Source: a virus (taxonomy: Duplodnaviria; Caudoviricetes). From it: a DNA stretch of 64,000 bases. This document shows, in pieces, positions 14,768-55,497 of the stretch. The translations under genes and the position numbers were made by a program. How positions within the stretch are numbered: position 1 is the first letter of the stretch; each line of letters begins with the position of its first letter. The stretch covers positions 92,950-156,949 of IMG/VR virus record IMGVR_UViG_2862465376_000001, one strand, 5' to 3'. The notes beneath the pieces were generated by a model. It saw only the letters and a program-made list of their open reading frames with translations, was not told the origin of the DNA and made no database searches.

Positions 14768-15414
14768 GCGACAACCTCCCCGCCCTCGCCGACCCGGACA
14801 GCGACGGCCCCACCAGCATGGTCCTGGTCAAGATCGGCGACCGCACGGTCCCCGCCAAGACCGGCCCCCGCTGCCGCGTCTGCCAGTCCCCCCACCGGGC
14901 CAAGATCGACTCCTGGATCATCGAGGGCTACACCCGGCCGACCATCCTCGAATGGCTCGCAGACATGGAGGAAGGCCCCGCAGGCCACCCCTCCGAGAAG
15001 GCACTGCGCGGCCACACCGACCGCCACCTGCCCCTGGAAGTCCGCGCCCAGACCGCCATCCTCGACCGCCGCGCCGGACAACTCGGCGAGGAGATCGAAA
15101 AATATGGCGGCCGTGTCGCCGACCACCTCTCCGCCCTCGATATGGTCGTACTGCAGGGCTTCGACGGCATCCAGAAGGGCACCATCAAGGTCGACGCCGC
15201 GACCCTGATGAAAGCCATCGACCTCAAGCACAAAATCGACACCACCGTCAGCGGGGGAGTGGACGCCAACGTCTGGCGAGACGCCCTCATGGAATACATG
15301 CGAATCGCCATCGGATTCATCCCGGTCGACCGCCGGAAAGACTTCGCAGCAGCCCTCGACGCAAGCCCCGTTCTCGCCGCCCTCTCGAAGAACGCACAGC
15401 AGAACAACATTTAA
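14764..15414 (+). CDS. Zn-finger/HTH protein, possible terminase small subunit
   Basis: CRVC...HTDRH then helical region; lies upstream of terL (function is inference). Confidence 0.4.
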   Translation: MSDNLPALADPDSDGPTSMVLVKIGDRTVPAKTGPRCRVCQSPHRAKIDSWIIEGYTRPTILEWLADMEEGPAGHPSEKALRGHTDRHLPLEVRAQTAILDRRAGQLGEEIEKYGGRVADHLSALDMVVLQGFDGIQKGTIKVDAATLMKAIDLKHKIDTTVSGGVDANVWRDALMEYMRIAIGFIPVDRRKDFAAALDASPVLAALSKNAQQNNI

Positions 15415-15476
15415 ATTCTTCCGGACCGCCAGCCGGGGACCACCACTCCTTACCGCCAGAGGAGAACACCGCCACC

Positions 15477-16466
15477 ATGCACCTGCGCGAACTGCCCACC
15501 AGGACCCTCGCCGACGTCGCCGTCGCCTGGAAGCACCACGACCGCGAATGGACCTCCGACGCCTGCGTCCCCCGCGCCGACTACGCGCGCGCCCCGCAGC
15601 AGGAACCCATCCTGATCCTCGGCGACCACGAGATCACCCTGGACGAGCAGGCCAGTGCCCGGCTGTGCGCCTTCTACCAGATCCCCACCGCGTACTTCCG
15701 CCGGATCACCCCGGCCGAGCAGCACTTCGTGATGAACGCCCGTATGGACCACGCCGAGGGCGAGATCACGATCACCTACAACGACCTCGGCATCACCGAC
15801 GTCCGCAAACCCACCAAGCCGCGCGTCGAGGCCGACGAGTTCGTCCGCATCGCCCACCGCATCCTCCCGGCCAGCGCCACCGTCCTCGACGCCTGGGTCA
15901 CCGCCGACGAACTCCGCCTGGACGTCATCAACCACGACGTCGAGGACGGCATCAGGGGCGGTCTGCGCTTCGGCCAGAACCGCAAGCAGAACCTGGCGCC
16001 GACCGTGGCACCGCTCCTCTTCCACGAGGACACCACCACGGTCATCGAGATCCCCGACCCCTCCCTGAAGATCGACGCACGCGGCATCTCCGTCGACAAG
16101 ATCGCCGAGCGCCTCGCGGCCGAAGCCCTCCGCGCCGCCGCCCGCCTCCACTCCGACGCCCAGCACCTGCTCCGCCTGGCCAACATCTCCATCGCCGGAG
16201 ACCGCATCACCCGCCTGCACCGCGTCGCCGCCGAGCACGGCCTGCCCGTCCGGCCCCTCTCCGACATCACCATCGCCCTCTCCCGCAGCGACGAGCCCAC
16301 CATGCTCGACCTCGCCCTCGCGATCGGCAACGCGGCCAACAGCCCCAAGCTCACCCTCGACTCCACCAAGCGCGCCGTCCGCATCAGGCTCCAGACCACC
16401 GCCGGAGCCCTCGTCGTGGACGAGGCCGAACGCTGCGCCTCCTGCCACGCCCTCGTCGCCGCCTGA
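15477..16466 (+). CDS. Hypothetical protein (possibly DUF932-like)
   Basis: GAGGAG RBS; QASARLCAFYQIPTAYFRR. Confidence 0.55.
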   Translation: MHLRELPTRTLADVAVAWKHHDREWTSDACVPRADYARAPQQEPILILGDHEITLDEQASARLCAFYQIPTAYFRRITPAEQHFVMNARMDHAEGEITITYNDLGITDVRKPTKPRVEADEFVRIAHRILPASATVLDAWVTADELRLDVINHDVEDGIRGGLRFGQNRKQNLAPTVAPLLFHEDTTTVIEIPDPSLKIDARGISVDKIAERLAAEALRAAARLHSDAQHLLRLANISIAGDRITRLHRVAAEHGLPVRPLSDITIALSRSDEPTMLDLALAIGNAANSPKLTLDSTKRAVRIRLQTTAGALVVDEAERCASCHALVAA

Positions 16467-18038: not shown

Positions 18039-18635
18039 GTGACCGCTGCCAGCGAGTGCGTCGGCAAGATCGTGAGTATCGAACGAATCGACGCAGACTA
18101 CCCCAGCTATCCGGCCTACCCCGAAGGTGAGTACCTGGTCAGTCACGCAACCGACAGCAAGTTCTGCGGGGTTCGCATCAACCGAGGGCACAAGCACGGA
18201 GGCTTTACCGCGCTTGCGCTTGCGGGTGCCGCAATCACCCAAGGCGTGCCCCTGACCGGCGACGACGCCTACAGGATCTACCGAGTCAGAGGCGTCGAGT
18301 CATGGATGGCGAAGTCCCTGGACGCCCTCTCCGCCGAGATCGCCTTCAACAGAGAGGACCTGCGTCAGCAGCCACCTAGCGACCCCTCCTTCTGGGAGAT
18401 GGCCGCACAGAGGGTCCTCAAGCTCCGCACCCTGCTGGAACGTGCAGAAATCACCAGCGACCCTGGCGTCAAGCCTTCATGCGCCTACCCCGGCTGCTGC
18501 AGGCAGCCCGCCCAGGCCCTGGAGGGGCAGGGCCGGGACGAACTGCCTGTCCTGGACGTCTACCTGCCGCCGGGCGCCGCCGTCCATGCCCGCCCCGGTT
18601 ACATCCTGCGGGTCCACCACGACGCGGCGGCCTGA
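18039..18635 (+). CDS. Hypothetical protein
   Basis: Fits operon; atypical codon usage in 5' half. Confidence 0.45.
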   Translation: MTAASECVGKIVSIERIDADYPSYPAYPEGEYLVSHATDSKFCGVRINRGHKHGGFTALALAGAAITQGVPLTGDDAYRIYRVRGVESWMAKSLDALSAEIAFNREDLRQQPPSDPSFWEMAAQRVLKLRTLLERAEITSDPGVKPSCAYPGCCRQPAQALEGQGRDELPVLDVYLPPGAAVHARPGYILRVHHDAAA

Positions 18636-18685
18636 CGCTGTCCCCGCGCGCCCTCCCCGCCCCAAGAGGCGAGGAGGGCGCCTTC

Positions 18686-20884
18686 ATGAGCACGCCGGAA
18701 GACACATCGCCGCTGGCCGGGTTCGACCCCACCGCGATCCACCACCTGTTCCTCGGGCTCGACGTCCCCGACCCGATCACCTTCGTCGTCTCACCGAAGT
18801 ACCTGAGCAGGCCCAACCTGTACCCCCGACAGGCCACCCTTCTGAAATGCTTTTTTCTCAGAGAGGACCTGTTCACCGAGTACGACTACCGCGTCGTCGC
18901 CGAGTGGGACGAGGCCTACCGCACCGCCAAGAGCGCCAACGAGCAGCGCGCCGCCCGCGCCGCCGCCCTCGCCGAAGAGCAGGACCCCGAAGCCGCCCTC
19001 GCGGCCGAGGTCGACGACATCATGACCGACGCCCTCGACGAGCTGGCCCAGCAGGTCCTCCTCGAAGGCAACGAAGACGCCCCCAAGATGCCCCTGTCCG
19101 GCACCCCGGACATCCTCGGCCGCATGCGCGCCTGCAAGGCGCTCGGCTACAGCTGGTTCAAAGAGATCCTCCTGGTCATGGGCCGCCGCGCCGGGAAGGG
19201 CCACATCAGCGCCCTGGCCATGGCGTACGTCCTGTGGTGCTACATGGCCAAGGGCGACCCCCAGGAGCACTACGGCGTCGACCGCGACAAGAAGCTCGCC
19301 GCCCTGATCTTCGCGGGCAAGCGCGACCAGGCCAAGCAGAACCTCTGGCGCGACTTCGTCAACGTCGTCACCGGAGCCCCCTGCTTCGCCCCCTACATCG
19401 CCAGCTCCCTCGGCGAGAAGCTGTCCGTCTACGCCCCCCACGACTTCGTCCGCATGGAGGAGATGCGCAAGAAGGGCATCAAGACCGCCATGGACATGGC
19501 CACCTTCGAGATCCTCCCGAAGGAATCCACCGTCATGGCCGGACGAGGCCCCGCCTCCTTCATCCTCGGCTTCGACGAGATGGCCCACGTCGTCAACGCG
19601 GGCGCCAACCGCTCCGCAGGCGAGGTCTACGACGCCTCCACCCCCTCCCTCGACCAGTTCGGCAAGGACGGCTTCATCGTCGAACCCAGCTCGCCGTGGG
19701 AAATGAGCGGCAAGTTCTACGACAACTGGCTGCGCGCCACCAGCTTCGAAGACGACGGCACCCCCACCTACCCCGCCGTCATGATGATCCAGCTCCCCAG
19801 CTGGGACATCTACCTCGACTGGCAGATCGCCCACGAACTGCCCCTCTTCCCCGAAGGCTTCCAGGGCGACAACGCCGAGTACGAGAACGCCCCCCTCCCC
19901 GGCTTCCGCGTCCTCAAGGGCGCCATCCAGACCTACGACGAAGAGATGCGCAAGCTGGAGAAGGCCGACCCCGACACCTTCAAGGTCGAACGCCGCGCCC
20001 AGTGGGCCACCGTCCTCGACGCCTACCTCGACCCCGCCAAGGTCGAAGCCGTCTTCTCCCCCTGGTACGCCCGCCCCGAACGCTACGGCAGCCCCCTCAT
20101 CGTCCCCACCGAGCGCGGCGTCCTCGCCTACGTCTACAAGGGCCACGCCGACCCCAGCTCCGTGAACTGCCGCTTCGGCATCGCCGTCGGCCACACCGAG
20201 ACCGACGACGAGGGGCGCCCCCACGCCGTCTTCGACAAGATCCACCACTTCGATCCGGCCGACTTCCCGAATCACACCATCGACTACGAAGAGGTCGAGG
20301 ACTGGATCTGGGAGGAGATCATCAGCGTCTACCAGCCCGAGGACTTCACGTTCGACCAGTATCAGAGTGTCGGCAGCATTCAGAAACTCGTCAAACAGGT
20401 CGCCCGCGCCCGCCTGGCCAAGCGGGTCAACATCTGGGAGCGCACCGCCACCAACCAGCTGAACTGGAAGTACGCCGAGACCTTCAAGGCCGCCATCAAC
20501 CTCGGCCTCGTCCACGCCCCCGCCTACGAGGACGGCGAACTGGAACTCAAGTTCCTGCAGAAACCGCCAGGCATCAACCGCGTCGACCACCCCACCGTCG
20601 GACCGGTCCAGACCAAAGACATCGCCGACGCGATCATGATCACCACCTACGCCCTCATCGGCGACTGGATCAGCGGCTACAAGGAGCAGCTCAACGCCGC
20701 CAGCGCCCGAGGCGCCATGCAGGGCGGCCTGCACGGATCCAGCCCGCACAGCCCCGAAATGACCTCGGCAGACCACGACCTCCAGGGCCGCCTCGACGCC
20801 TTGCGCCAGTTCACCCGCACCCGCACCGGCCGCCCCGGATGGGAACAGGGACTCGGCCGCACCCGGACCGGATATCGCCGTTGA
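18686..20884 (+). CDS. Terminase large subunit
   Basis: YPRQ; Walker A MGRRAGKG; Walker B ILGFDEMAH; SSP; nuclease HADPS, FTFDQYQS, KDIADA. Confidence 0.85.
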   Translation: MSTPEDTSPLAGFDPTAIHHLFLGLDVPDPITFVVSPKYLSRPNLYPRQATLLKCFFLREDLFTEYDYRVVAEWDEAYRTAKSANEQRAARAAALAEEQDPEAALAAEVDDIMTDALDELAQQVLLEGNEDAPKMPLSGTPDILGRMRACKALGYSWFKEILLVMGRRAGKGHISALAMAYVLWCYMAKGDPQEHYGVDRDKKLAALIFAGKRDQAKQNLWRDFVNVVTGAPCFAPYIASSLGEKLSVYAPHDFVRMEEMRKKGIKTAMDMATFEILPKESTVMAGRGPASFILGFDEMAHVVNAGANRSAGEVYDASTPSLDQFGKDGFIVEPSSPWEMSGKFYDNWLRATSFEDDGTPTYPAVMMIQLPSWDIYLDWQIAHELPLFPEGFQGDNAEYENAPLPGFRVLKGAIQTYDEEMRKLEKADPDTFKVERRAQWATVLDAYLDPAKVEAVFSPWYARPERYGSPLIVPTERGVLAYVYKGHADPSSVNCRFGIAVGHTETDDEGRPHAVFDKIHHFDPADFPNHTIDYEEVEDWIWEEIISVYQPEDFTFDQYQSVGSIQKLVKQVARARLAKRVNIWERTATNQLNWKYAETFKAAINLGLVHAPAYEDGELELKFLQKPPGINRVDHPTVGPVQTKDIADAIMITTYALIGDWISGYKEQLNAASARGAMQGGLHGSSPHSPEMTSADHDLQGRLDALRQFTRTRTGRPGWEQGLGRTRTGYRR

Positions 20885-21147
20885 CCAGGAAAGGCGTTCT
20901 TGCCGAACCCAAAAACGCGTGGCACGATGGCCCTGTCTCGTGGATAGGGCTGCTGCATGCAGCCAGCGGCGTACCTGGGTGACAGACCGCAAGGTCGGCT
21001 CAGGCGTGAGGGTCGTTCTTGGCGGGATCACCCCACTTAAAACGTCCCACGATGACCCAGCGGGCCTCCCGGCCAGGATCCACCGGGAGGCCCGCTCATC
21101 TGTGTCCACCACCTCACCTCCAGCGCCAAGGACTGGAGGTGCCAGGG

Positions 21148-22545
21148 ATGACGGACATCAGCGCGACCAGCTTCTTCCGCCAGGCGGCGGCCGACCCCCC
21201 GGGGCTCGACTTCGAGCACGAAGAGGTCGACACCGGTGGCAGTAAACGCCCTACCAAGATCCACCTGCACGCCGTCGAGCCCGGCACCGGCGACCGCATG
21301 GGCACCCTCACCTACCACGTGCCCCGCCGCAAAGCCGACAAGATCCTCATCGAACACCTTGGCACCGAAGAGGCCCACCAGCGCAAGGGCGTCGGCTCCG
21401 CCCTCATGGACGAGATGCAGCGCCGCCACCCCGGCACCCCCATCGATCACGGCGACCGGACGGACCAGGGAAAGGCGTGGTGGGACAAGTACACCGACGG
21501 CAAGAAGGTCACCCGAGGCCGCACCATCGCCTCGGCCACCAAGCCCTGCCCCTGCTGCGGCGGCACCGGCGAGCACGACACGGGCTTCGAGTGCTTCCAC
21601 TGCGACGGCGGCCTCACTGTCCCCGCCGACAGCCCCGATGACGCCACCTGTGACGGCCGCCTGCCCGACGGCGGCCAAGGCAAGACGGCCTTCACCACGC
21701 CTGTCCCTGACAACCACGAGCCCTACCAGCACGAGCACGACTGGCTGCCCCGCGACCACTTCTTCGCACCGGGGGAGAAGGGTCTGGACCCGCGCCTGTT
21801 CGACGAGCACGAGCGCATGCACCCGATCGTCCGCCAGCACCTGCTCAGCCTGCTCAACAGCTTCTGGGCGCCCAAGTACGGCGACTCCTGGCAGTCCTGG
21901 GCCCGCGTCTACCTCGCCGGATCCGAGGCCAGCCACTTCTACGGCAACGGCGACCTCGACATCCTCATCGGCATCGACCACGACGCCCTCAACCACCACG
22001 TGGACACCTTCACCGGCGAGCCCCCGGCCGCCGTGGACGAGAAGCTCACCGACGAGCTGCGCCACGGCCTCAACGACGAGGCCCGCATGCTCCCCGGCCC
22101 GGACGGCAAGGAAACCGGCCCCTGGGAGAATACTTGGTATGTAAACCCGTCAAGCTATGACATACGGGACATCAAGCCCTACGCCGCCTACGACATCACC
22201 CGCGACGAATGGGCCGTGAAACCTGTTGAAGTACCAGACGACTTCAGCCCCGAAAAGCTCCCCGAGTCCACCTGGGACGTGTTCGAGGCGCTGCAGAAGC
22301 TGATCGGCGCTGTCCGGGAACTTCCCGACGGAGTGCGCGAAAGGGAAGGCGCAGCGTTGTACGATTACCTCCACGCTGACCGCCACAGCGCATTCGGCCC
22401 CGAAGGAACGGGCCTCTACGACCCCAGCAACGCCGTCTGGAAAGCCCTCGACAAGGCCCCCGACGCACCGTTGCAGCAGCTGATTGACTGGAAGCACGCC
22501 CACGACGGCGTGGCCGCCGCCACGGACCAGGAGAAGGCCGCATGA
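21148..22545 (+). CDS. Multidomain protein: GNAT + CxxCxGxG Zn finger + pol-beta-like nucleotidyltransferase
   Basis: HQRKGVGSALM; CPCCGGTG..CFHCDG; LAGSEAS...GDLDILI. Confidence 0.75.
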   Translation: MTDISATSFFRQAAADPPGLDFEHEEVDTGGSKRPTKIHLHAVEPGTGDRMGTLTYHVPRRKADKILIEHLGTEEAHQRKGVGSALMDEMQRRHPGTPIDHGDRTDQGKAWWDKYTDGKKVTRGRTIASATKPCPCCGGTGEHDTGFECFHCDGGLTVPADSPDDATCDGRLPDGGQGKTAFTTPVPDNHEPYQHEHDWLPRDHFFAPGEKGLDPRLFDEHERMHPIVRQHLLSLLNSFWAPKYGDSWQSWARVYLAGSEASHFYGNGDLDILIGIDHDALNHHVDTFTGEPPAAVDEKLTDELRHGLNDEARMLPGPDGKETGPWENTWYVNPSSYDIRDIKPYAAYDITRDEWAVKPVEVPDDFSPEKLPESTWDVFEALQKLIGAVRELPDGVREREGAALYDYLHADRHSAFGPEGTGLYDPSNAVWKALDKAPDAPLQQLIDWKHAHDGVAAATDQEKAA

Positions 22546-24482
22546 CCGAGCACAGCGCCACGGCGTTCTTCCGCATGACTGGCGCGGTACTGGCCGGTGC
22601 CAACGGAGACCTGCCCAGCGGACTGACCTTCTCCCACCGAGAGCATGCAGATGGCCACGTTGTGCTCGCGCATCCAGATGACAGGCGTGACGTCTCCGTC
22701 GGGTCGCTTTCGTGGTTCAAGCACAAGCGGCCAGGGCCCGAAGACGGGTGGTGCAAGACGTGCGACGACGAGTACCCCGACGGGCACCACTCCCACCCGG
22801 CGGGTGAGGTTGAGGGTGTCCAGGTGCTGCCCAGCTACCGACGCCGTGGTATCGCCTCCGCCTTGTGGAGCTACGCCCACTCGCTGGATGTGACTCCCAA
22901 GCCGGTGCATTCTGCAGACCAGACAGACGACGGGGCAGCGTGGGCACAGCACAGCGCCACGGTGCACTTCCGTGCGGCAGCCGCTTCGAACGGCTGGCAC
23001 CAGGACCCCGGCCACGCGCACGTCTCACGCGGCATGGAGATCGAGCCGGACGGCGGCTGGCACCCCGACGTCGCCCACCGCATCCTGAACGGCACCGCCA
23101 CCCACGACGACGTCCTCGGCCACGTCGACACCGACCACGTCGGGCACTACTGGTCGACCCACAGCACCACGGACCCGGGCTCCCTCCGCGAGCCCCGCTC
23201 CTACGCCGAGCCCCACGAACCGATCTCGAACTGGACCCCGCACGCCGAGCCCGGCGAGAACGTCCTGGGCGCCGCCGGAGTCGTCCTCGTCGGCCACCGC
23301 CCCCACGGCTGGAACCCCGACGACAACCCCGATGACGGCCTGATGGGCAACTCCCACCTGCCCGACCACTCGCACATCCCCCTGCACGAGATCCACTACA
23401 CCGGCGACGGCGAGAACTGGCACACCCTCACCCCGCCCGCCGGAACCACCGTCCACACCGACGGCCAGCACCACACCGCCACCGCGCACGACGGCACCCT
23501 CCACATCGGCTACGTCGGCCTGCACGACTACGACAAGGCCATCAACCGGCTCTCCAGCCTCACGGACTTCTTCCGCGAGGCCAGCCTGCAGGAGACTGCC
23601 TCCATGGACGACGAGCACCTTGACCTCTACCACCGCACCACGCCGGAGGCCGCCGCCGCGATCTACCGCGACAAGCGCATGACCTCCAAGGAGCGCATCG
23701 GCAACGACCGGCCGGTGTTCTTCTCCACCTTCCGAGGCGACGAGGAAGATGCTCAGGGGCGCGGATATGGCGAAGGTGTGGTGCACGTGCGCGTACCGCA
23801 CGAGATCGCCAACATCGACGACGAGTTCCCCTCCGGCGAGGAGCACTACTGGGTGCACGCCGGTCACCTCAAGCCCGAGCACTTCGTCGAGCCGACCCAC
23901 CACACCGCTACCCTCCAGGCCACGGCGGCCGAGCAGCAGTTCCTGCAGCGGCAGGCAGCAGCCGTCCTCCACGACAAGGGCGTGATGGTGGCGCTCGTCC
24001 CGCCGCGCGAGGTCGCCGAGCAGCTGGCCCGCGAGGACGGCCAGCCCGCCGACCAGCTCCACGTCACCCTCGCCTACCTCGGCAACACCAGCGACTACAC
24101 CCGCGAGCAGCTCCAGCTGCTCCCGCAGATCGTCGGCGCCTGGGCCGTCCGCCGCAAGCCCGTCCACGTCCGTATCGGCGGCATCGGCACCTTCAACAAC
24201 GCCTTCAAGGGAGAGCACGTCCTGTGGGCGGCGGCCGACATCCCCGACGGCGCCCAGATGCACTCCAGCCTCGCCCACTACCTCGAAGGCCACGGCTACC
24301 GCCTGCCCTCCGAACACGGCTGGACCCCGCACCTCACCCTCGCCTACGTCGACCGGCACCACCGCTTCATGCCGCGCCTGGACGAGCACCACTGGGACGC
24401 CGAGGAAGTCGTCACCTTCATCGGCGGCACCCGCCACCCGGCCCGCCTCTTCGGCCGACCCAGCACACCCGCCACCCTGTAA
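22542..24482 (+). CDS. Multidomain protein: GNAT + ART-like domain(s) + 2H phosphoesterase
   Basis: YRRRGIASALW; LYHRT..VFFST..GYG..EEH; HVTL and HLTL 2H motifs. Confidence 0.75.
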   Translation: MTEHSATAFFRMTGAVLAGANGDLPSGLTFSHREHADGHVVLAHPDDRRDVSVGSLSWFKHKRPGPEDGWCKTCDDEYPDGHHSHPAGEVEGVQVLPSYRRRGIASALWSYAHSLDVTPKPVHSADQTDDGAAWAQHSATVHFRAAAASNGWHQDPGHAHVSRGMEIEPDGGWHPDVAHRILNGTATHDDVLGHVDTDHVGHYWSTHSTTDPGSLREPRSYAEPHEPISNWTPHAEPGENVLGAAGVVLVGHRPHGWNPDDNPDDGLMGNSHLPDHSHIPLHEIHYTGDGENWHTLTPPAGTTVHTDGQHHTATAHDGTLHIGYVGLHDYDKAINRLSSLTDFFREASLQETASMDDEHLDLYHRTTPEAAAAIYRDKRMTSKERIGNDRPVFFSTFRGDEEDAQGRGYGEGVVHVRVPHEIANIDDEFPSGEEHYWVHAGHLKPEHFVEPTHHTATLQATAAEQQFLQRQAAAVLHDKGVMVALVPPREVAEQLAREDGQPADQLHVTLAYLGNTSDYTREQLQLLPQIVGAWAVRRKPVHVRIGGIGTFNNAFKGEHVLWAAADIPDGAQMHSSLAHYLEGHGYRLPSEHGWTPHLTLAYVDRHHRFMPRLDEHHWDAEEVVTFIGGTRHPARLFGRPSTPATL

Positions 24483-24519
24483 CCCACCACCACGCAACAG
24501 CAGTCAGGAGAACAGTCGC

Positions 24520-25278
24520 ATGGCCACGGAGACCAAGGCCCGGGAGATCCCGCCCTACGTCGAAAGCATCATGAAGGCCGCCACCGACGCCGGGCTGGAG
24601 GTAGTCCGCAACACCAACAGCATCAAGATCAGCGCGGCGAACGGCAAGCGGGGCCAGACCTTCAGCATCCCCCGCAACCCGTACCCCACCGCACCCCAGC
24701 TGCGCTCCAGCATGGCCCGCCACGGCTTCCTCGCCAAGGTGAAGTACGACCCCAGCGCCGCCGAGGCCCCGGCCGAGAAGGACGAGCCGAAGAAGACCGC
24801 CGAGAAGACGGGCCACGCCTGCCCCGACTGCGACCACCCGCCGTTCGCCCGCCCCCAGGCCCTGGGCCTGCACCGGCGCATGAAGCACGGCGTCGTCGGC
24901 ATGAGCGACGAGGCGATCCGCAAGCGCGAGATCAAGGCGGCCAAGAACCAGCAGAGCCCCTCGGCAGACCCGGCCACCGGCCCGACTCCTCCCCCCGTCC
25001 CGGCCCAGGCCCCCGCCCCGGCCGCCGAGACGGACGCCCGCCCGCAGATCGTGACGCCCGCCACCTCCGGCCTCCCGGACAAGGTGTCGGCCGCCGTCGC
25101 CGCCCTCGTCCACGCCGTCGGCAGCGAGACCGCCAACACCGCCACCCTGCACGCCGAGAACGCACGTCTGCGTGCTTTCAAGGACAAGGTGACGGCCGAG
25201 GCCACCAACGGAAACCAGACCCCCATCCAGACCGTCGCCAACATCGAAGCCCTCTGCCGCGCCGCCGACCAGCAGTAA
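24520..25278 (+). CDS. C2H2 Zn-finger protein
   Basis: CPDC...ALGLHRRMKH. Confidence 0.65.
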   Translation: MATETKAREIPPYVESIMKAATDAGLEVVRNTNSIKISAANGKRGQTFSIPRNPYPTAPQLRSSMARHGFLAKVKYDPSAAEAPAEKDEPKKTAEKTGHACPDCDHPPFARPQALGLHRRMKHGVVGMSDEAIRKREIKAAKNQQSPSADPATGPTPPPVPAQAPAPAAETDARPQIVTPATSGLPDKVSAAVAALVHAVGSETANTATLHAENARLRAFKDKVTAEATNGNQTPIQTVANIEALCRAADQQ

Positions 25279-25335
25279 CACCACCACCACCCCAGGACAG
25301 GGCGCGCCACCGGCGCGCCCTTCCTGATCTCTTGC

Positions 25336-25360
25336 AATGCATACTCATGTGCATTAAGGT
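25336..25360 (+). promoter_or_regulatory. Palindromic operator/promoter, copy 1
   Basis: AATGCATACTCATGTGCATT then -10 TAAGGT. Confidence 0.75.
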
Positions 25361-25394
25361 GGGGGTCTCCCGTACCCGCCGCCGAGGAGATCTC

Positions 25395-25853
25395 ATGTCC
25401 GAGAACAACACCGCCCCGCCACTGCCCGCCCCGGAAACCACTCCCGCCATGGGCGCGCTGGGCCAGCTCGCTGAGATCCAGAACGCCCTGAAGGCCATCG
25501 GCGAGCAGATCACAGAACTCACCCTGGACGGCAGCGAACTCGCCCTCACCGAGAGGCAGGCCACCGCAGACGTCCTCCGCGCCCAGGGCAGGCCGATGAC
25601 CTACCGCTCCACCCTCTACCTGTACCTCAAGGAGCGGCGCGGCATCACCGTCGCCGCCAAGGGCAAGCGCCAGCGCAGCATCGGCGACATCGTCCCCCAG
25701 GAAGTCCCCAAGTACCTCTCGCCCGAGAGCCTCCAGGCCATCCGCGCCTCCCTCAGCGCCACCTCCTGGACCATCAGCAAGCTGACAGAGCAGCGCGAGG
25801 AGGAGTACCCCGACCTCCACGCCCGCGCCTGCAGCGAGATCATGGGCGTCTGA
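25395..25853 (+). CDS. Hypothetical protein
   Basis: GAGGAG RBS downstream of the palindrome promoter. Confidence 0.65.
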   Translation: MSENNTAPPLPAPETTPAMGALGQLAEIQNALKAIGEQITELTLDGSELALTERQATADVLRAQGRPMTYRSTLYLYLKERRGITVAAKGKRQRSIGDIVPQEVPKYLSPESLQAIRASLSATSWTISKLTEQREEEYPDLHARACSEIMGV

Positions 25854-25956
25854 GCACACAAAACAACGTCCCCGACTGGAACTCCTTGCCCGGATCCCAG
25901 CCAGGGACGCTGAACGCCACCTCCACCGCAATCATCCCGCCGAGGAAGACTGAGAA

Positions 25957-26931
25957 GTGATGACCGCCTCCAAGCGTACCTGGACCGACACGGCCAAGGC
26001 CACAATCACCACCACCGACTGGGACAAGACCCTCACCGACGGCGGCATCTACCTCCTCGGCCTCGGAGGCTTCTACGTCGGCTACCAGGTCCTCCACACC
26101 CAGGCCCTCGCCGTCGGCTTCCCCCAGGACCAGGCCGTTGTCGTCGCCGCCCTCGCCGACCTCGCCATCCTGCTCTACTCCCGCAAGGCCGTCCGCGAGG
26201 TCAGAGCCGGACGCTCCGCCCGGGTCATCCGCACCCTCGTCGCCCTCTTCTCCCTCGCCACCTTCGGCCTCCAGCTCCGCGACGCCTGGCCCGACCCCCT
26301 CTCCGTCACCTTCCACGCCCTGCCCCCCGCCGTCTGGATCATCGGCCACGAGATGATGCTGCGCGGCGACCTCCGCGACGCCAAGGCCGCCAAGCGCGAC
26401 CAGCAGATCGCCGACGGCCTCCGCCCCGCACCCCTCCCGGCCATCCGCCTGACCTGGTGGCTCCTCGACCCGTTCCACACCTTCAAGGTCTGGCGCCGCA
26501 CCAAGCTGTGGGAGGTCCCCCAGGAGGCCGTCATCCGCCACGAGGCCACCAAGCTGCAGGCGAAGAACAAGGACATCCCCCTCGCCTGGCAGCGCGTCCT
26601 CCTGGACACCCCGGCCGACAACGACGAGCCCGAGGCCCGCACTCGCGCACAGCAGGACTCCCAGAAGCAGGCCGCCTTCGCCGTCACGCTCTACCGCCAG
26701 TCCTCCCGCGACAAGGTCCCCACCGACGAGATGATGGACTTCCTCGCCGCCCTGCCGCCCGCCCCCGCCGAGGGCCGCCCCCTCGACAAGGCCCGCGACT
26801 ACGTAACCCTCGTCGAACAGGAGGCTGACACCCGCGACATCAAGGTCACCGGCGTCTTCCTCGGAGCCCTCCTCGGCGTCGACCCCAGCTACATCTCCCG
26901 CCTGAAGAAGGCCGCCCCCGTCGGCGCCTGA
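25957..26931 (+). CDS. DUF2637-type (plasmid Spd-like) membrane protein
   Basis: Four TM helices; HALPPAVW; IRLTWWLLDPFHTFKVWRRTKLWE; C-terminal HTH. Confidence 0.7.
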   Translation: MMTASKRTWTDTAKATITTTDWDKTLTDGGIYLLGLGGFYVGYQVLHTQALAVGFPQDQAVVVAALADLAILLYSRKAVREVRAGRSARVIRTLVALFSLATFGLQLRDAWPDPLSVTFHALPPAVWIIGHEMMLRGDLRDAKAAKRDQQIADGLRPAPLPAIRLTWWLLDPFHTFKVWRRTKLWEVPQEAVIRHEATKLQAKNKDIPLAWQRVLLDTPADNDEPEARTRAQQDSQKQAAFAVTLYRQSSRDKVPTDEMMDFLAALPPAPAEGRPLDKARDYVTLVEQEADTRDIKVTGVFLGALLGVDPSYISRLKKAAPVGA

Positions 26932-52114: not shown

Positions 52115-54166
52115 ATGGGCAAGAAGCTCAGTGAGCCGATGATCCGCACCATCCGCACGGCCTACGAGACCGGCGCCGACGCCGAGGGCCGGTTCGAGGT
52201 CGCCCCCGGTTCGGCCAACCCCCGCACCGTCGAGGCGCTGAAGTCGCGCGGCATGGCCGAACTGGGGGAGGTCGTCACCGTCCGCGATTACGAGACGCGC
52301 AAGCCCGTGCGCACCGTCACCCGCACCTACCTCACCGCCGACGCCGTCGCCCTGGTCCGCGAGATGAACGGCGAGACGGCCGAGGAGTCCCCGGCTGTCG
52401 TCGACCGGGTTAAGGCGGCGGAGGCTCACGCGGCCACCCTGATCACCGACGACGGCGAGCGTTTCCGCCCCGTGGAGCACATCGCGCCGGGATGGCAGAT
52501 CCGGCAGGCCGACGGCTCATGGAAGACCGTAGAGAAGACGAACGTTAGGAATGGCCCGAACTGCGTGGTGCGTGTCGACTTCACCGACGGTGCTACCGAT
52601 GATCTGCCCACTCACACCGAGGCGTACAGCCGCATGCACGCGCCCGCCGACGTCTCGCCGATCGAGCTGGAGCCGGTCATGTACACCCGTATGACGGGGG
52701 CGTACGGGATTGGTTGGGCGCTGCGGGTGTGCGACGACAACCGCGCTTCCGTCCGCGACGCGATCGCCCGCGCCCGGAAGCGTGGCAACGACGTCACCGT
52801 GTGGGACAACGGCGTGATCCAAGTCAACGGCGCCGGAAAGATCCATCACAGCTACAACGACGCGGGCAAGCCGTGCCCGGTCTGGTTCCTTCCGCAGCGC
52901 CCGGCCGCCGAGGAGCCCCCGGCCGCCGGTAACGAGTGCGACGAGTGCGGCGAGGCCATCCCGGACACGGCCGCCAGCATGGCCAACCCCCACCACGCCC
53001 AGACGTGCTCCCTGTACGAGGAGTCCCCGGCCGCCGACGGGCACCGTGCACTTATGGAGGCGGGGCACGCCCAGCTCGGCGCGCTGGCAAAGAAGTGGAG
53101 CGCGGCCGTGGACGCCGCCACGGCCCCGGCCGCCGACAAGGGCATGCCGTCGGGTGCGCACCGCATCACGAACACGGGCGAGAGCATCGAGGGCGGCACC
53201 GCGTACGCCTTCACCTGCTCGCGCTGCGACCAGCGGGCCACCCTGGTCGGGTTCGACTCGCTCAAGTGCACGCCGACGGCGGAGCGCGACCACGCCCGAG
53301 AGCGCGCCGATGGCCTGCTGAGCGACGTCACGTTCGAGGGCGCAACCGCCTACGCGCTCACGTCGCCGGACCGCTTCAGCGGTGAGCCGTCCACGCGCAC
53401 CGTGCTCCGTGGTGAGGCGCGCGAGGCGCTCGCCCTGTGGCTGGACGCCGGAGCGCCGCACACCTGGGGGCGCGGCGAGTTGCGGGTGCGGTGCTTCCAG
53501 GGCGATCACACGATTCAGCCCGTCGTCACCGCCGGTGCGGTGATCCGCACCGGCGCCGATGTGGTGGAGCTGTCCCGCGAGCCGTGGCGCGGCGGTCAGG
53601 TCTGCGGCCATCAGACCCAGTACGGCATGGGCGCGTACAGCGAGCGCTACTGCGGCAAGCGCAAGGCGCCGGGTCTGGTGGAGTGCCGCGAGCACTACGA
53701 CGACACCCTTTCGAACTACGGTCCCCGTGCGCTGCGTCAGGCCATCGCGTCGGGTGTCGCCGTCGGTGACCCGTCCGCGCCCGTGGTGCTGCTGTGGGAG
53801 CCGTACGAGGGTGACGTGCCCGAGGAGCCGACCGAGGAGGAGCGGGCCGCGTACGCCGCCGCCACGGGCGCCCCGGCCGCCGTCGAGGACCCGGCCACGC
53901 CCGCCGACGCGCCCGCGTCCGCGAGCATCCTGGACGTGTCCGAGCATGCCGCCGGGGCGCTTGCCGAGGACGTCACGCCTCACCGTGACCGACTCACGGT
54001 GCGGGTGGTGCGCGGGATGGACGACAACGTGACCACGGAAGAGCGGGCGTTCGTGGTGGGCATGGTGGCGTGCCTGATGCGGGCGGGCGCCCGCTACACC
54101 CGTACCGATGAGTCCCTGGTGCTGCGCCACGACGACGAGACGGTGACGGTGTCCCTGGCGGCATAG
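52115..54166 (+). CDS. Large mosaic hypothetical protein
   Basis: AAGGAG RBS; several CxxC modules. Confidence 0.7.
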   Translation: MGKKLSEPMIRTIRTAYETGADAEGRFEVAPGSANPRTVEALKSRGMAELGEVVTVRDYETRKPVRTVTRTYLTADAVALVREMNGETAEESPAVVDRVKAAEAHAATLITDDGERFRPVEHIAPGWQIRQADGSWKTVEKTNVRNGPNCVVRVDFTDGATDDLPTHTEAYSRMHAPADVSPIELEPVMYTRMTGAYGIGWALRVCDDNRASVRDAIARARKRGNDVTVWDNGVIQVNGAGKIHHSYNDAGKPCPVWFLPQRPAAEEPPAAGNECDECGEAIPDTAASMANPHHAQTCSLYEESPAADGHRALMEAGHAQLGALAKKWSAAVDAATAPAADKGMPSGAHRITNTGESIEGGTAYAFTCSRCDQRATLVGFDSLKCTPTAERDHARERADGLLSDVTFEGATAYALTSPDRFSGEPSTRTVLRGEAREALALWLDAGAPHTWGRGELRVRCFQGDHTIQPVVTAGAVIRTGADVVELSREPWRGGQVCGHQTQYGMGAYSERYCGKRKAPGLVECREHYDDTLSNYGPRALRQAIASGVAVGDPSAPVVLLWEPYEGDVPEEPTEEERAAYAAATGAPAAVEDPATPADAPASASILDVSEHAAGALAEDVTPHRDRLTVRVVRGMDDNVTTEERAFVVGMVACLMRAGARYTRTDESLVLRHDDETVTVSLAA

Positions 54167-54246
54167 AGCGGGAGCGCCCGGGGGCGGGAGTCGTCGGCCC
54201 GCCCCCGGGCGCTCGTCCTCCGAAGATCCTTCCCCGGACGACTTTC

Positions 54247-54271
54247 AATGCACATCCATATGCATTAGTCT
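54247..54271 (+). promoter_or_regulatory. Palindromic operator/promoter, copy 5
   Basis: AATGCACATCCATATGCATT then -10 TAGTCT. Confidence 0.85.
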
Positions 54272-54309
54272 GGCGGTCCCGCCGAGGACGACAGCACGAG
54301 GAGCACACC

Positions 54310-55497
54310 ATGACCGACACCACCGTAAAGATCCATTTCGAGGAGGAGCCCTGCGGCCGTTGCAACGGCACCGGGCGGTACTCCTACAACCAGCGTGACG
54401 GTCACGTGTGCTGGGGATGCTCCGGCAAGAAGGTGCGCCTTTCCCGCCGGGGGAAGACCGCGTTCGAGGCGTACGAAAAGGCGCTCGCCGACTCGGCCGC
54501 GACCGTGGCCGTCCGCGACGTCAAGCCCGGTATGCGCATCATGTCCCAGGCGCACGGCGGCGTGGCGGGCAACAAGCCGTGGGACTACAAGGCGGCATGG
54601 CGCACGGTGGCCACGGTGGAGGTGACCGAGTACACCGGGCGAGGCGTCGAGAACGACAGGTATGTCGACGTGCCGTGTGTGCGCGCCGAGATCGCGTTCG
54701 AGGACGGGAAGTCGTGGACGGCGGAGTCGTCCGACCACCCCGCCTACTGGAACAAGGGCGCTTTCCACACCATCTACACCACCCTCGCACTCACCGTTGG
54801 CGGTCCCGAAGCACAGGCCGCCCGCGAGGAGGCACGCCGCGCAATCGCCCGCCGTTTCAAGGGCGCGTGGCTGGACGGCGAGGAGCCCCCGGTGCCGCCC
54901 GCGCCGCGCAAGCCCAAGAGCAAGGCGCGCAAGCCCCTGCCTGCCAACCTGTACCCCGGGCAGTGCTGGCTCTGCGAGACCCTCGTGCCCACCGGTGAGG
55001 GTGAGCGGTTCAAGCCGGAGGGGGACACTCAGTGGAAGGTTCAGCACAAGCCGGGTGAGTGCCCCCAGGAGCGCCAGGAGCCGAAGGAGGCACCCGCGCC
55101 CGCCCCGAAGGCGCCGCAGCGCGAGGAGCGCCCGGCCATGCCGAACAAGTACGCGGGAGAGTGCGCGCTCTGCGGAGTCCTGGTCGAGGCGGAGAAGGGG
55201 GAGCGCATCCGCGTCGAGGGCACGTGGGCCGCCCGGCACCCCAAGGGTGAGTGCCCGCCGCCCCCCGGCCCGGCCGCCGACGGCACGCCTGCCGTCCTGA
55301 TCACCCGGCACAAGCTGTACCCGGAAGTCGCCCGGCGTGGTCCGGCGTGGCGGTGGACCTACGACTACGCCGTGAACGGCGCCGCCGCGATCGGGTACGG
55401 CACGGGTCTCGAATCGCTGCGCGACATGCTGCGCAGTAAGTACGGCCGCCGGGTGCGCATCGTGGAGGGGTGGAAGACGGCGGTGCCCGCCGACTGA
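54310..55497 (+). CDS. Zn-finger-rich hypothetical protein
   Basis: CGRCNGTG..CWGCSG; two N(L/K)Y(P/A)GxCxxC..GE..H...C repeats. Confidence 0.7.
   Translation: MTDTTVKIHFEEEPCGRCNGTGRYSYNQRDGHVCWGCSGKKVRLSRRGKTAFEAYEKALADSAATVAVRDVKPGMRIMSQAHGGVAGNKPWDYKAAWRTVATVEVTEYTGRGVENDRYVDVPCVRAEIAFEDGKSWTAESSDHPAYWNKGAFHTIYTTLALTVGGPEAQAAREEARRAIARRFKGAWLDGEEPPVPPAPRKPKSKARKPLPANLYPGQCWLCETLVPTGEGERFKPEGDTQWKVQHKPGECPQERQEPKEAPAPAPKAPQREERPAMPNKYAGECALCGVLVEAEKGERIRVEGTWAARHPKGECPPPPGPAADGTPAVLITRHKLYPEVARRGPAWRWTYDYAVNGAAAIGYGTGLESLRDMLRSKYGRRVRIVEGWKTAVPAD

Follow-up and report, generated by a model that had tools for sequence, protein, structure and literature searches.

Two adjacent genes, here termed A and B, follow the large terminase subunit gene (terL) in a 64,000-nucleotide stretch of viral DNA (Duplodnaviria; Caudoviricetes), namely positions 92,950–156,949 of the IMG/VR record IMGVR_UViG_2862465376_000001; this whole stretch is hereafter the window. 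A preliminary description of the window had placed two polyvalent enzyme proteins right after the terminase. Both prove to be plus-strand open reading frames (ORFs) with exactly the coordinates given there, and the upstream terL is genuine. Protein A comprises three modules, and protein B comprises five modules and one scar. We conclude that A and B are probably a coupled pair of exchangeable polyvalent effector polyproteins. As such, the pair is an expected member of a class that has been described before (Iyer et al., 2017; PMC5512222); new are its cassette-and-joint organization and two domains that were not listed previously.

Structure of genes A and B

The features of both genes are listed below. 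The tag is a short peptide found at module junctions; NTase denotes nucleotidyltransferase, ART denotes ADP-ribosyltransferase and aa denotes amino acids.

21148–22545, + strand: gene A (tag, mini-GNAT, zinc finger, NTase-like domain), 465 aa; ORF with Shine–Dalgarno sequence GGAGG
21160–21180, + strand: junction tag SATSFFR at the N-terminus of A
21202–21492, + strand: mini-GNAT of A, residues 19–115, motif A QRKGVG
21547–21612, + strand: DnaJ-type Cys4 zinc finger CPCCGGTG..CFHCDGG, residues 134–155, recognized from sequence and conservation
21682–21690, + strand: K-T-A joint before the NTase module, residues 179–181; [KR]-T-A is conserved in close homologues
21715–22512, + strand: putative Pol-beta-type NTase-like domain with a helical C-terminal part, residues 190–455, recognized from GS..DxD and the model topology
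22542–24482, + strand: gene B (tag, mini-GNAT, tag, B2, RelE scar, tag, mini-ART, linker, 2H), 646 aa; ORF
22554–22574, + strand: junction tag SATAFFR, B residues 5–11
22614–22949, + strand: mini-GNAT of B (B1), residues 25–136, motif A RRRGIA, with a CxxC..HHxH insert; Pfam 22.3 bits
22953–22973, + strand: junction tag SATVHFR, B residues 138–144
23004–23456, + strand: B2, an unnamed domain with a weak ART-like fold, residues 155–305; RG..GxWW..RPxGWxPDDNP..GLMGNS..Y
23475–23555, + strand: scar of a RelE-like module, residues 312–338, ..HDGTLHIGYVGLHDYDKAINRLS, recognized from relatives
23556–23576, + strand: junction tag SLTDFFR, B residues 339–345
23610–23897, + strand: mini-ART, residues 357–452; LYHRT..FFST..DDEFPSGEEHY
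23898–23972, + strand: linker HHTATLQ..LQRQAAAV before 2H, residues 453–477, conserved in relatives
23973–24461, + strand: 2H phosphoesterase, LigT/ThpR-like, residues 478–640; HVTL and HLTL

The ATG of gene A lies 8 nt downstream of its GGAGG, its homologues share the MTDI start, and an exact database copy of protein A exists (P0035). The start of B overlaps the stop of A as ATGA, so that the two genes are translationally coupled. The public call for B (P0004, 506 aa) begins at an internal GTG inside the second tag and thus leaves out window positions 22542–22961, so that database copies of B lack the N-terminal mini-GNAT.

Modules of protein A

The mini-GNAT of A spans ∼95 residues, scores 22.4 bits against Pfam Acetyltransf_1 (cut-off 20.7), and has both the GNAT fold and the acetyl-CoA motif A (Q/R-x-x-G-x-G/A) by which the family is recognized. 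The zinc finger that follows is kept by 9 of 16 homologues; the structure model shows it as disordered. A CxxCxGxG zinc finger of the same type (DnaJ/Anti-TRAP) occurs elsewhere in the window, in ORF 54112–55497 (Pfam Anti-TRAP E 3.8e-5, below cut-off). Both DNA and protein homology blocks shared with relatives begin at the K-T-A joint.

Residues 190–455 are the best-conserved part of the A family. In the homologue alignment of A, the motif AGSEAS..GNGDLDILIG has invariant G258, D269 and D271 and a nearly invariant S259. The model places helices at residues 226–244 and 258–261 and strands at residues 252–257 and 269–276 (pLDDT, i.e. predicted local distance difference test, 80–91), which gives the order helix-strand-GS-helix-strand(DxD). 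This is the arrangement by which Pol-beta enzymes are recognized, i.e. G[SG] and then DxD on adjacent strands of a minimal alpha-beta-alpha-beta core. A language-model search of the ESM Atlas with this part returned viral clusters at 0.96, and 23 of its 30 matches share a set with PF01909 on 12–33% of members. Searches with family models and known structures lend the assignment no support: (i) the isolated segment has no hidden Markov model (HMM) match in Pfam (to E 10) or NCBIfam; (ii) PF01909 has no match in a whole 156-kb relative; (iii) a PDB profile search with the A homologue alignment returned GNATs only; and (iv) fold searches with the whole A model produced a list filled entirely by GNATs, so that the NTase fold was barely probed by them. 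Residues 190–455 are likely, but not proven, to be a Pol-beta nucleotidyltransferase.

Modules of protein B

The AlphaFold2 model of B, based on a 36-row alignment, resolves three domains confidently and leaves residues 1–150 blank, a region with almost no homologues. The N-terminal B1 is a full-length paralogue of the A mini-GNAT (pairwise E 3e-5) and is 40% identical to a repeat of another protein (P0123) that itself has Pfam GNAT matches. Only two to three homologues of B1 are available and their alignment is too shallow for a model. B1 also carries an insert, WCKTCDDEYPDGHHSH (B residues 61–85; window 22722–22796), with CxxC and HHxH motifs that could bind metal.

B2 is modelled with high confidence (pLDDT 93–98). 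Its family numbers 54 cluster representatives, which either stand alone (165–190 residues) or form part of proteins that reach 2380 residues; the latter also carry MuF, 2H or NUDIX. R163-G164, G201, W204, P254 and Y286 never vary, and LMGNS hardly does. A second ART-like motif, 'YWST', had been proposed here, but its 'ST' is not conserved. The only candidate catalytic glutamate, E283, occurs in 13 of 23 sequences, and B2 lacks the conserved catalytic Glu/Asp and the strand-2 motif that define ARTs. It has no match in Pfam (E to 10) or NCBIfam, a PDB profile search gave chance-level matches only, and the Atlas search gave only sub-threshold leads, of which the best named is TNT at 0.81. As modelled, B2 is thus ART-like in shape only.

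Relatives carry a full module of ∼100 aa, annotated as RelE by the Joint Genome Institute (JGI), that ends in the same peptide as B residues 312–338. These residues, which correspond to the last ∼27 of the RelE-like module, are by this comparison a recombination scar. The scar shows that cassettes are not always lost cleanly at the tags.

The mini-ART has no match in Pfam (E to 10, ART-PolyVal PF18760 included), NCBIfam or PDB profiles. Among 15 homologues, Y363-H364-R365-T366, S395-T396 and D427-E428 are invariant and all lie on predicted strands. Conserved putative catalytic residues thus occupy strands 1, 2 and 5 (H/R, Y or S-T, E/D), as in ARTs, and the site appears to be of the R-S-E or H-Y-E type. 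The domain matches Tpt1 and toxin ARTs equally well.

The C-terminal 2H domain has two HxT/S motifs in a duplicated alpha+beta fold, the hallmark of its family. It is nearer to the LigT/ThpR RNA 2',3'-cyclic phosphodiesterases (5h7e/5h7f, 1iuh, 4qak and 5ldm) than to phage Acb1 (7t27), although its fusion to the end of a polyvalent protein sets it apart from LigT/ThpR. Activity against CBASS (the cyclic-oligonucleotide-based antiphage signalling system) is therefore only one possibility. The domain types named in the preliminary description are all at least plausible and its list is essentially right, except for the second ART-like motif and the closeness to Acb1. The idea of paired writer and eraser activities finds no support, as removal of ADP-ribose, acetyl or nucleotidyl groups is not a reaction of 2H enzymes; none is known to act as an eraser of ADP-ribosylation, acetylation or nucleotidylation.

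Exchange of cassettes among relatives

We then compared the architecture of A and B among related loci. Homologues of A are 460–1330 aa long and nearly always have the mini-GNAT first and the NTase last, with any extra length inserted between them; gene A of the window is a minimal version of its family. Homologues of B are 640–1323 aa long, and the 2H domain is always at the end. The cassettes inserted in relatives include Arr-like and ART-PolyVal ADP-ribosyltransferases, RelE-like modules and further GNATs, and a NUDIX cassette is present only in a more distant relative (L024). The combination of B1, B2 and mini-ART is found in none of the related loci compared.

Nucleotide homology was mapped against five relatives and breaks off exactly at the joints. 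It extends from terL through A and ends at 22559–22582, at or just after the first tag of B (22573 in the closest relative), and is absent over B1, the second tag and B2. An island of 84–141 nt within 23474–23614 (RelE scar, third tag and linker) is shared at 80–91% identity with all five relatives. Homology is again absent over the mini-ART and resumes at 23888–23955 with the HHTAT linker and the 2H domain. Unlike the variable cassettes upstream, the stretch 23888–25955 (2H and downstream genes) is 85% identical to one of the relatives (L006). Read from these alignments, the relatives retain anchor modules (i.e. GNAT and NTase in A, and 2H in B) and trade the cassettes between them at short conserved joints.

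The more distant relative has its own arrangement (L024:12724–20114; TerL 51% identical). A single 1988-aa protein (GNAT..RelE-like..NTase..NUDIX) replaces both genes and is followed by a separate 484-aa protein ending in 2H; the strict FFR tag is absent.

A joint peptide at module starts

The tag pattern [ST][AL]Tx[FH]FR occurs four times in all six frames of the window, and all four copies belong to A and B: each protein has one directly behind its fourth residue, and the other two begin internal modules of B. Homologues contain up to four tags per protein, and each tag heads a module of whatever kind (i.e. GNAT, Arr-like, ART-PolyVal-like, mini-ART, B2 or 2H). In 446 kb of related loci, every copy is inside polyvalent genes. 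We also searched the back-translated DNA pattern against two complete 155–156-kb phage genomes, one plasmid and two whole 8–9 Mb Streptomyces assemblies; matches are confined to polyvalent-gene copies, and a reversed control pattern gave none.

The codons of the tag differ between copies. Synonymous codons replace one another for Ala, Thr and Arg, and Ser, otherwise AGC, is encoded once by TCC and once by TCG. This indicates selection on the tag peptide and not only on the DNA, and we therefore rejected the possibility that the tag is a DNA-only recombination signal. Shorter joints with a basic-polar-Ala core also occur, namely HHTAT (twice in B), KTA (before the NTase) and RQAA (before 2H and inside the tag). 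In 227 linker residues, the pattern [RKH][QTSE]A[ATS] turns up 7 times (0.4 expected), whereas the 884 domain residues contain none; as it was chosen after seeing the data, the figure is descriptive only.

Two further observations concern tag-like sequences and their surroundings. Elsewhere in the window there is a single near-match, the relaxed tag-like peptide TATMHLR at 15468–15488 (ORF 14952–16466), which is probably due to chance. In relatives, Cys/His-rich mini-modules (e.g. CGNCGYGHHTACCEE) directly precede tags.

The phage-plasmid family

The gene upstream of the pair is:

18479–20884, + strand: large terminase subunit (terL), recognized by tblastn and phrog_2

The terL product is ∼30% identical over ∼80% of its length to the terminases of Myrna, Rhodococcus phage E3, Finch and Gordonia phages (tblastn, E down to 5e-83), and it also matches phrog_2 (E 1.9e-16). 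An overlapping ORF of 846 aa (18442–20982) was rejected as a gene, being an Arg/Pro-rich wrong frame over terL. The nearest annotated relative is pRLB1-9.1, a circular 154-kb plasmid from a soil Streptomyces isolate, which is 81% identical over this stretch and carries baseplate J, an NlpC/P60 protein, ParA, helicases and DnaE. Relatives of ∼155 kb in IMG/VR are 100% complete by CheckV, and the same genes occur on 150–158-kb contigs in several Streptomyces assemblies. Taken together, these sequences place the element in a family of ∼155-kb temperate Streptomyces phage-plasmids of the pRLB1-9.1 type with a Myrna/E3-type terminase.

The gene order terL, A, B, two small genes, a DUF2637 gene and a tyrosine recombinase is the same in pRLB1-9.1, and one or two long multi-module ORFs always follow terL in the other relatives. 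In this family terL is apart from the structural genes, and in pRLB1-9.1 the tail genes are ∼40 kb away from it, so a neighbour of terL is not by itself a 'head gene'.

Interpretation of the gene pair

Polyvalent proteins were proposed to travel with the DNA and to disarm or re-programme the new host, and proteolytic release of their parts was also discussed (Iyer et al., 2017; PMC5512222). GNAT, ART, Pol-beta NTase and 2H domains are all in the published repertoire of this class (PMC5512222). A and B resemble its members in being phage-encoded (the class includes phage and plasmid genes), in having several unrelated conflict-type domains (at least two) per polypeptide, and in an architecture that varies between relatives (PMC5512222). 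They differ in containing no MuF, portal, peptidase or N4-RNAP module (PMC5512222), and in being two coupled genes with fixed end modules and exchangeable inner cassettes. A joint peptide at cassette starts was not found in the text of Iyer et al. 2017 (PMC5512222).

The most likely mechanism is as follows. Each protein is a chain of small, separately folding enzyme cassettes, which probably modify host proteins or nucleic acids using acetyl-CoA (the two mini-GNATs), NAD+ (the mini-ART and perhaps B2) or nucleoside triphosphates (the NTase), while phosphodiester bonds of the 2',3'-cyclic or 2'-5' kind would be cleaved by the LigT-type 2H domain. The inner cassettes are swapped by recombination at the short conserved joints. 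The joint peptide could be a recognition mark for cutting the chains into enzymes and/or for loading them into the capsid, and the loaded enzymes would act at the start of the next infection. Because the tag heads both proteins and every cassette and is under selection at the protein level, it is most readily taken as a mark that is read by another protein, which could be a protease or a capsid-loading factor. We consider cleavage or packaging at the joints possible, if somewhat short of an even chance. The more specific proposal, in which the [ST][AL]TxFFR joint is a dedicated address-and-cut signal for a head protease or loading factor and the enzymes are packaged and injected as cleavable polyproteins, is tentative.

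Delivery in the virion is suggested by analogy. Alt and the internal proteins of phage T4 reportedly have a capsid targeting sequence that is cut by the prohead protease gp21, and the ejection proteins of phage SPN3US are said to be cut by gp245. In the working model, as in these systems, enzymes (including an ART) with a short N-terminal peptide would be loaded into the head, trimmed by the head protease and injected with the DNA. By contrast, A and B have no sequence relation to the T4 and SPN3US proteins, their tag is also internal between modules, and no head protease was found here.

Homologous domains are associated with head proteins in other phages. In Streptomyces and Arthrobacter phages, 2H domains are fused to MuF, capsid protease or portal; the B2 domain is fused to MuF in one protein (P0138); and BFVD matches include 'structural' and 'capsid morphogenesis' proteins. 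In addition, gp097 of Mycobacterium phage Tonenili (L026 33543–35798; 751 aa, hypothetical) matches B residues 18–293 (mini-GNAT and B2) at 30% identity. Its gene lies ∼4.5 kb upstream of the portal gene, with a tRNA cluster and the gene for a hypothetical protein of 1095 aa in between. Through this homologue, cultured cluster C mycobacteriophages offer a way to check whether B2 is packaged in virions.

Other observations weigh against the proposed mechanism. The MuF, Peptidase_S78 and S77 HMMs have no match in a complete relative (G001), although these phages are divergent and absence is not implied. A and B have no portal or capsid gene beside them, and their place next to terL is therefore a poor guide to timing. 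A tag only four residues from the initiator methionine has no obvious need for cutting. The concentration of the joint-core pattern in linkers speaks for the proposal, but that pattern was defined once the data were known. Along the same lines, neither A nor B has a Phage_Mu_F match, and hence the N-terminal MuF that marks MuF toxins is missing; PHROGs gave no portal, capsid or protease assignment to the window ORFs at 43.9–61.7 kb.

Alternatively, A and B might act in the infected or lysogenic cell as intact multi-enzyme proteins, neither packaged nor cut, with the joints being flexible linkers and microhomology for exchange. We regard this as rather unlikely, although the absence of a detected MuF, portal or protease linkage and the separation of terL from the structural genes agree with it, the DNA homology islands at the joints fit recombination, and the tags lie in low-confidence, helix-like linkers of the models. 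The tag itself argues otherwise: the peptide is kept despite synonymous codon change, it heads both proteins at a place where no linker is needed, and a neutral linker would not remain so exclusive and constant. The pair could also be a weapon of the plasmid state, i.e. defence, abortive-infection or addiction toxins directed by the resident phage-plasmid at other phages or plasmid-free cells, in analogy to polymorphic toxins. RelE-like, ART, Arr-like, NUDIX, GNAT and NTase cassettes are typical of toxins and defence systems, the element is a plasmid with ParA, and the exchange at conserved motifs ahead of the cassettes resembles that of CdiA and Rhs toxins. However, A and B have no cassette-specific immunity genes and no secretion domain, the variable cassettes are internal and the downstream genes conserved (the 85% identity with L006 over 23888–25955), and the lytic cycle is favoured both by the position behind terL and by homology to head-linked proteins, which makes a plasmid-state role improbable.

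The similarity to polymorphic toxins deserves comment in this respect. MuF polymorphic toxins of temperate phages were reportedly described by Jamet and colleagues in 2017, and the pre-toxin motifs of CdiA and Rhs are VENN and DPxGL, respectively. A and B share with these systems variable effector cassettes that are joined to constant parts at a short conserved motif and are swapped by recombination. They differ in the absence of MuF, in variable parts that are internal rather than C-terminal, in several cassettes per protein and in the lack of adjacent immunity genes. A classical polymorphic toxin was rejected on account of this internal position and because the variable parts are not followed by immunity genes. 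An RNA-repair set can also be imagined, in which the 2H domain would heal 2',3'-cyclic ends, the NTase would rebuild tRNA 3' ends and a Tpt1-like mini-ART would remove 2'-phosphates, thereby countering host anticodon or tRNA nucleases. This is very unlikely, as searches of A and B revealed neither an RNA ligase nor a polynucleotide kinase domain, the mini-ART is no closer to Tpt1 than to toxin ARTs, and polyvalent-type 2H domains never associate with RNA ligases (Iyer et al., 2017; PMC5512222).

Polyvalent proteins were defined by computation and have hardly been studied at the bench, and the A/B family could make experiments tractable: (i) the hosts are cultivable Streptomyces, and pRLB1-9.1 comes from an isolated strain; (ii) dozens of close relatives that differ only in their cassettes are natural swap experiments; and (iii) the sharply defined joint peptide predicts where cuts should fall. 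The family also contributes two compact domains that are absent from family libraries, i.e. B2, which is widespread in giant phage proteins, and the 95-aa mini-ART, whose putative active site is fully conserved. The 2H or ART modules would be additions to the known phage counter-defence enzymes if they act against defences based on nucleotide signalling or NAD. If address-and-cut delivery is true, an injected arsenal, including undescribed domains such as B2, would be readable directly from sequence.

Sequence features around the pair

The window has a G+C content of 67–74% (∼67–68% in genes A and B) and is transcribed rightward across its first 28 kb. The rightward block includes genes for a single-stranded DNA-binding (SSB)-like protein, a DnaE-type polymerase, a RecA/UvsX-like recombinase and a RuvC-like resolvase. 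The spacer between terL and gene A is 263 nt long and holds one feature:

21063–21094, + strand: GC-rich hairpin, inverted repeat GGGCCTCCCGG..CCGGGAGGCCC, between terL and gene A, read from the sequence

A scan for promoters and terminators found nothing exceeding shuffled expectation. The hairpin has no T-tract and hence was not called by the terminator scan; it could be a Streptomyces-type terminator or a processing site. Downstream of B (24520–25853 and 25957–26931) lie two small ORFs without family matches and the DUF2637 gene.

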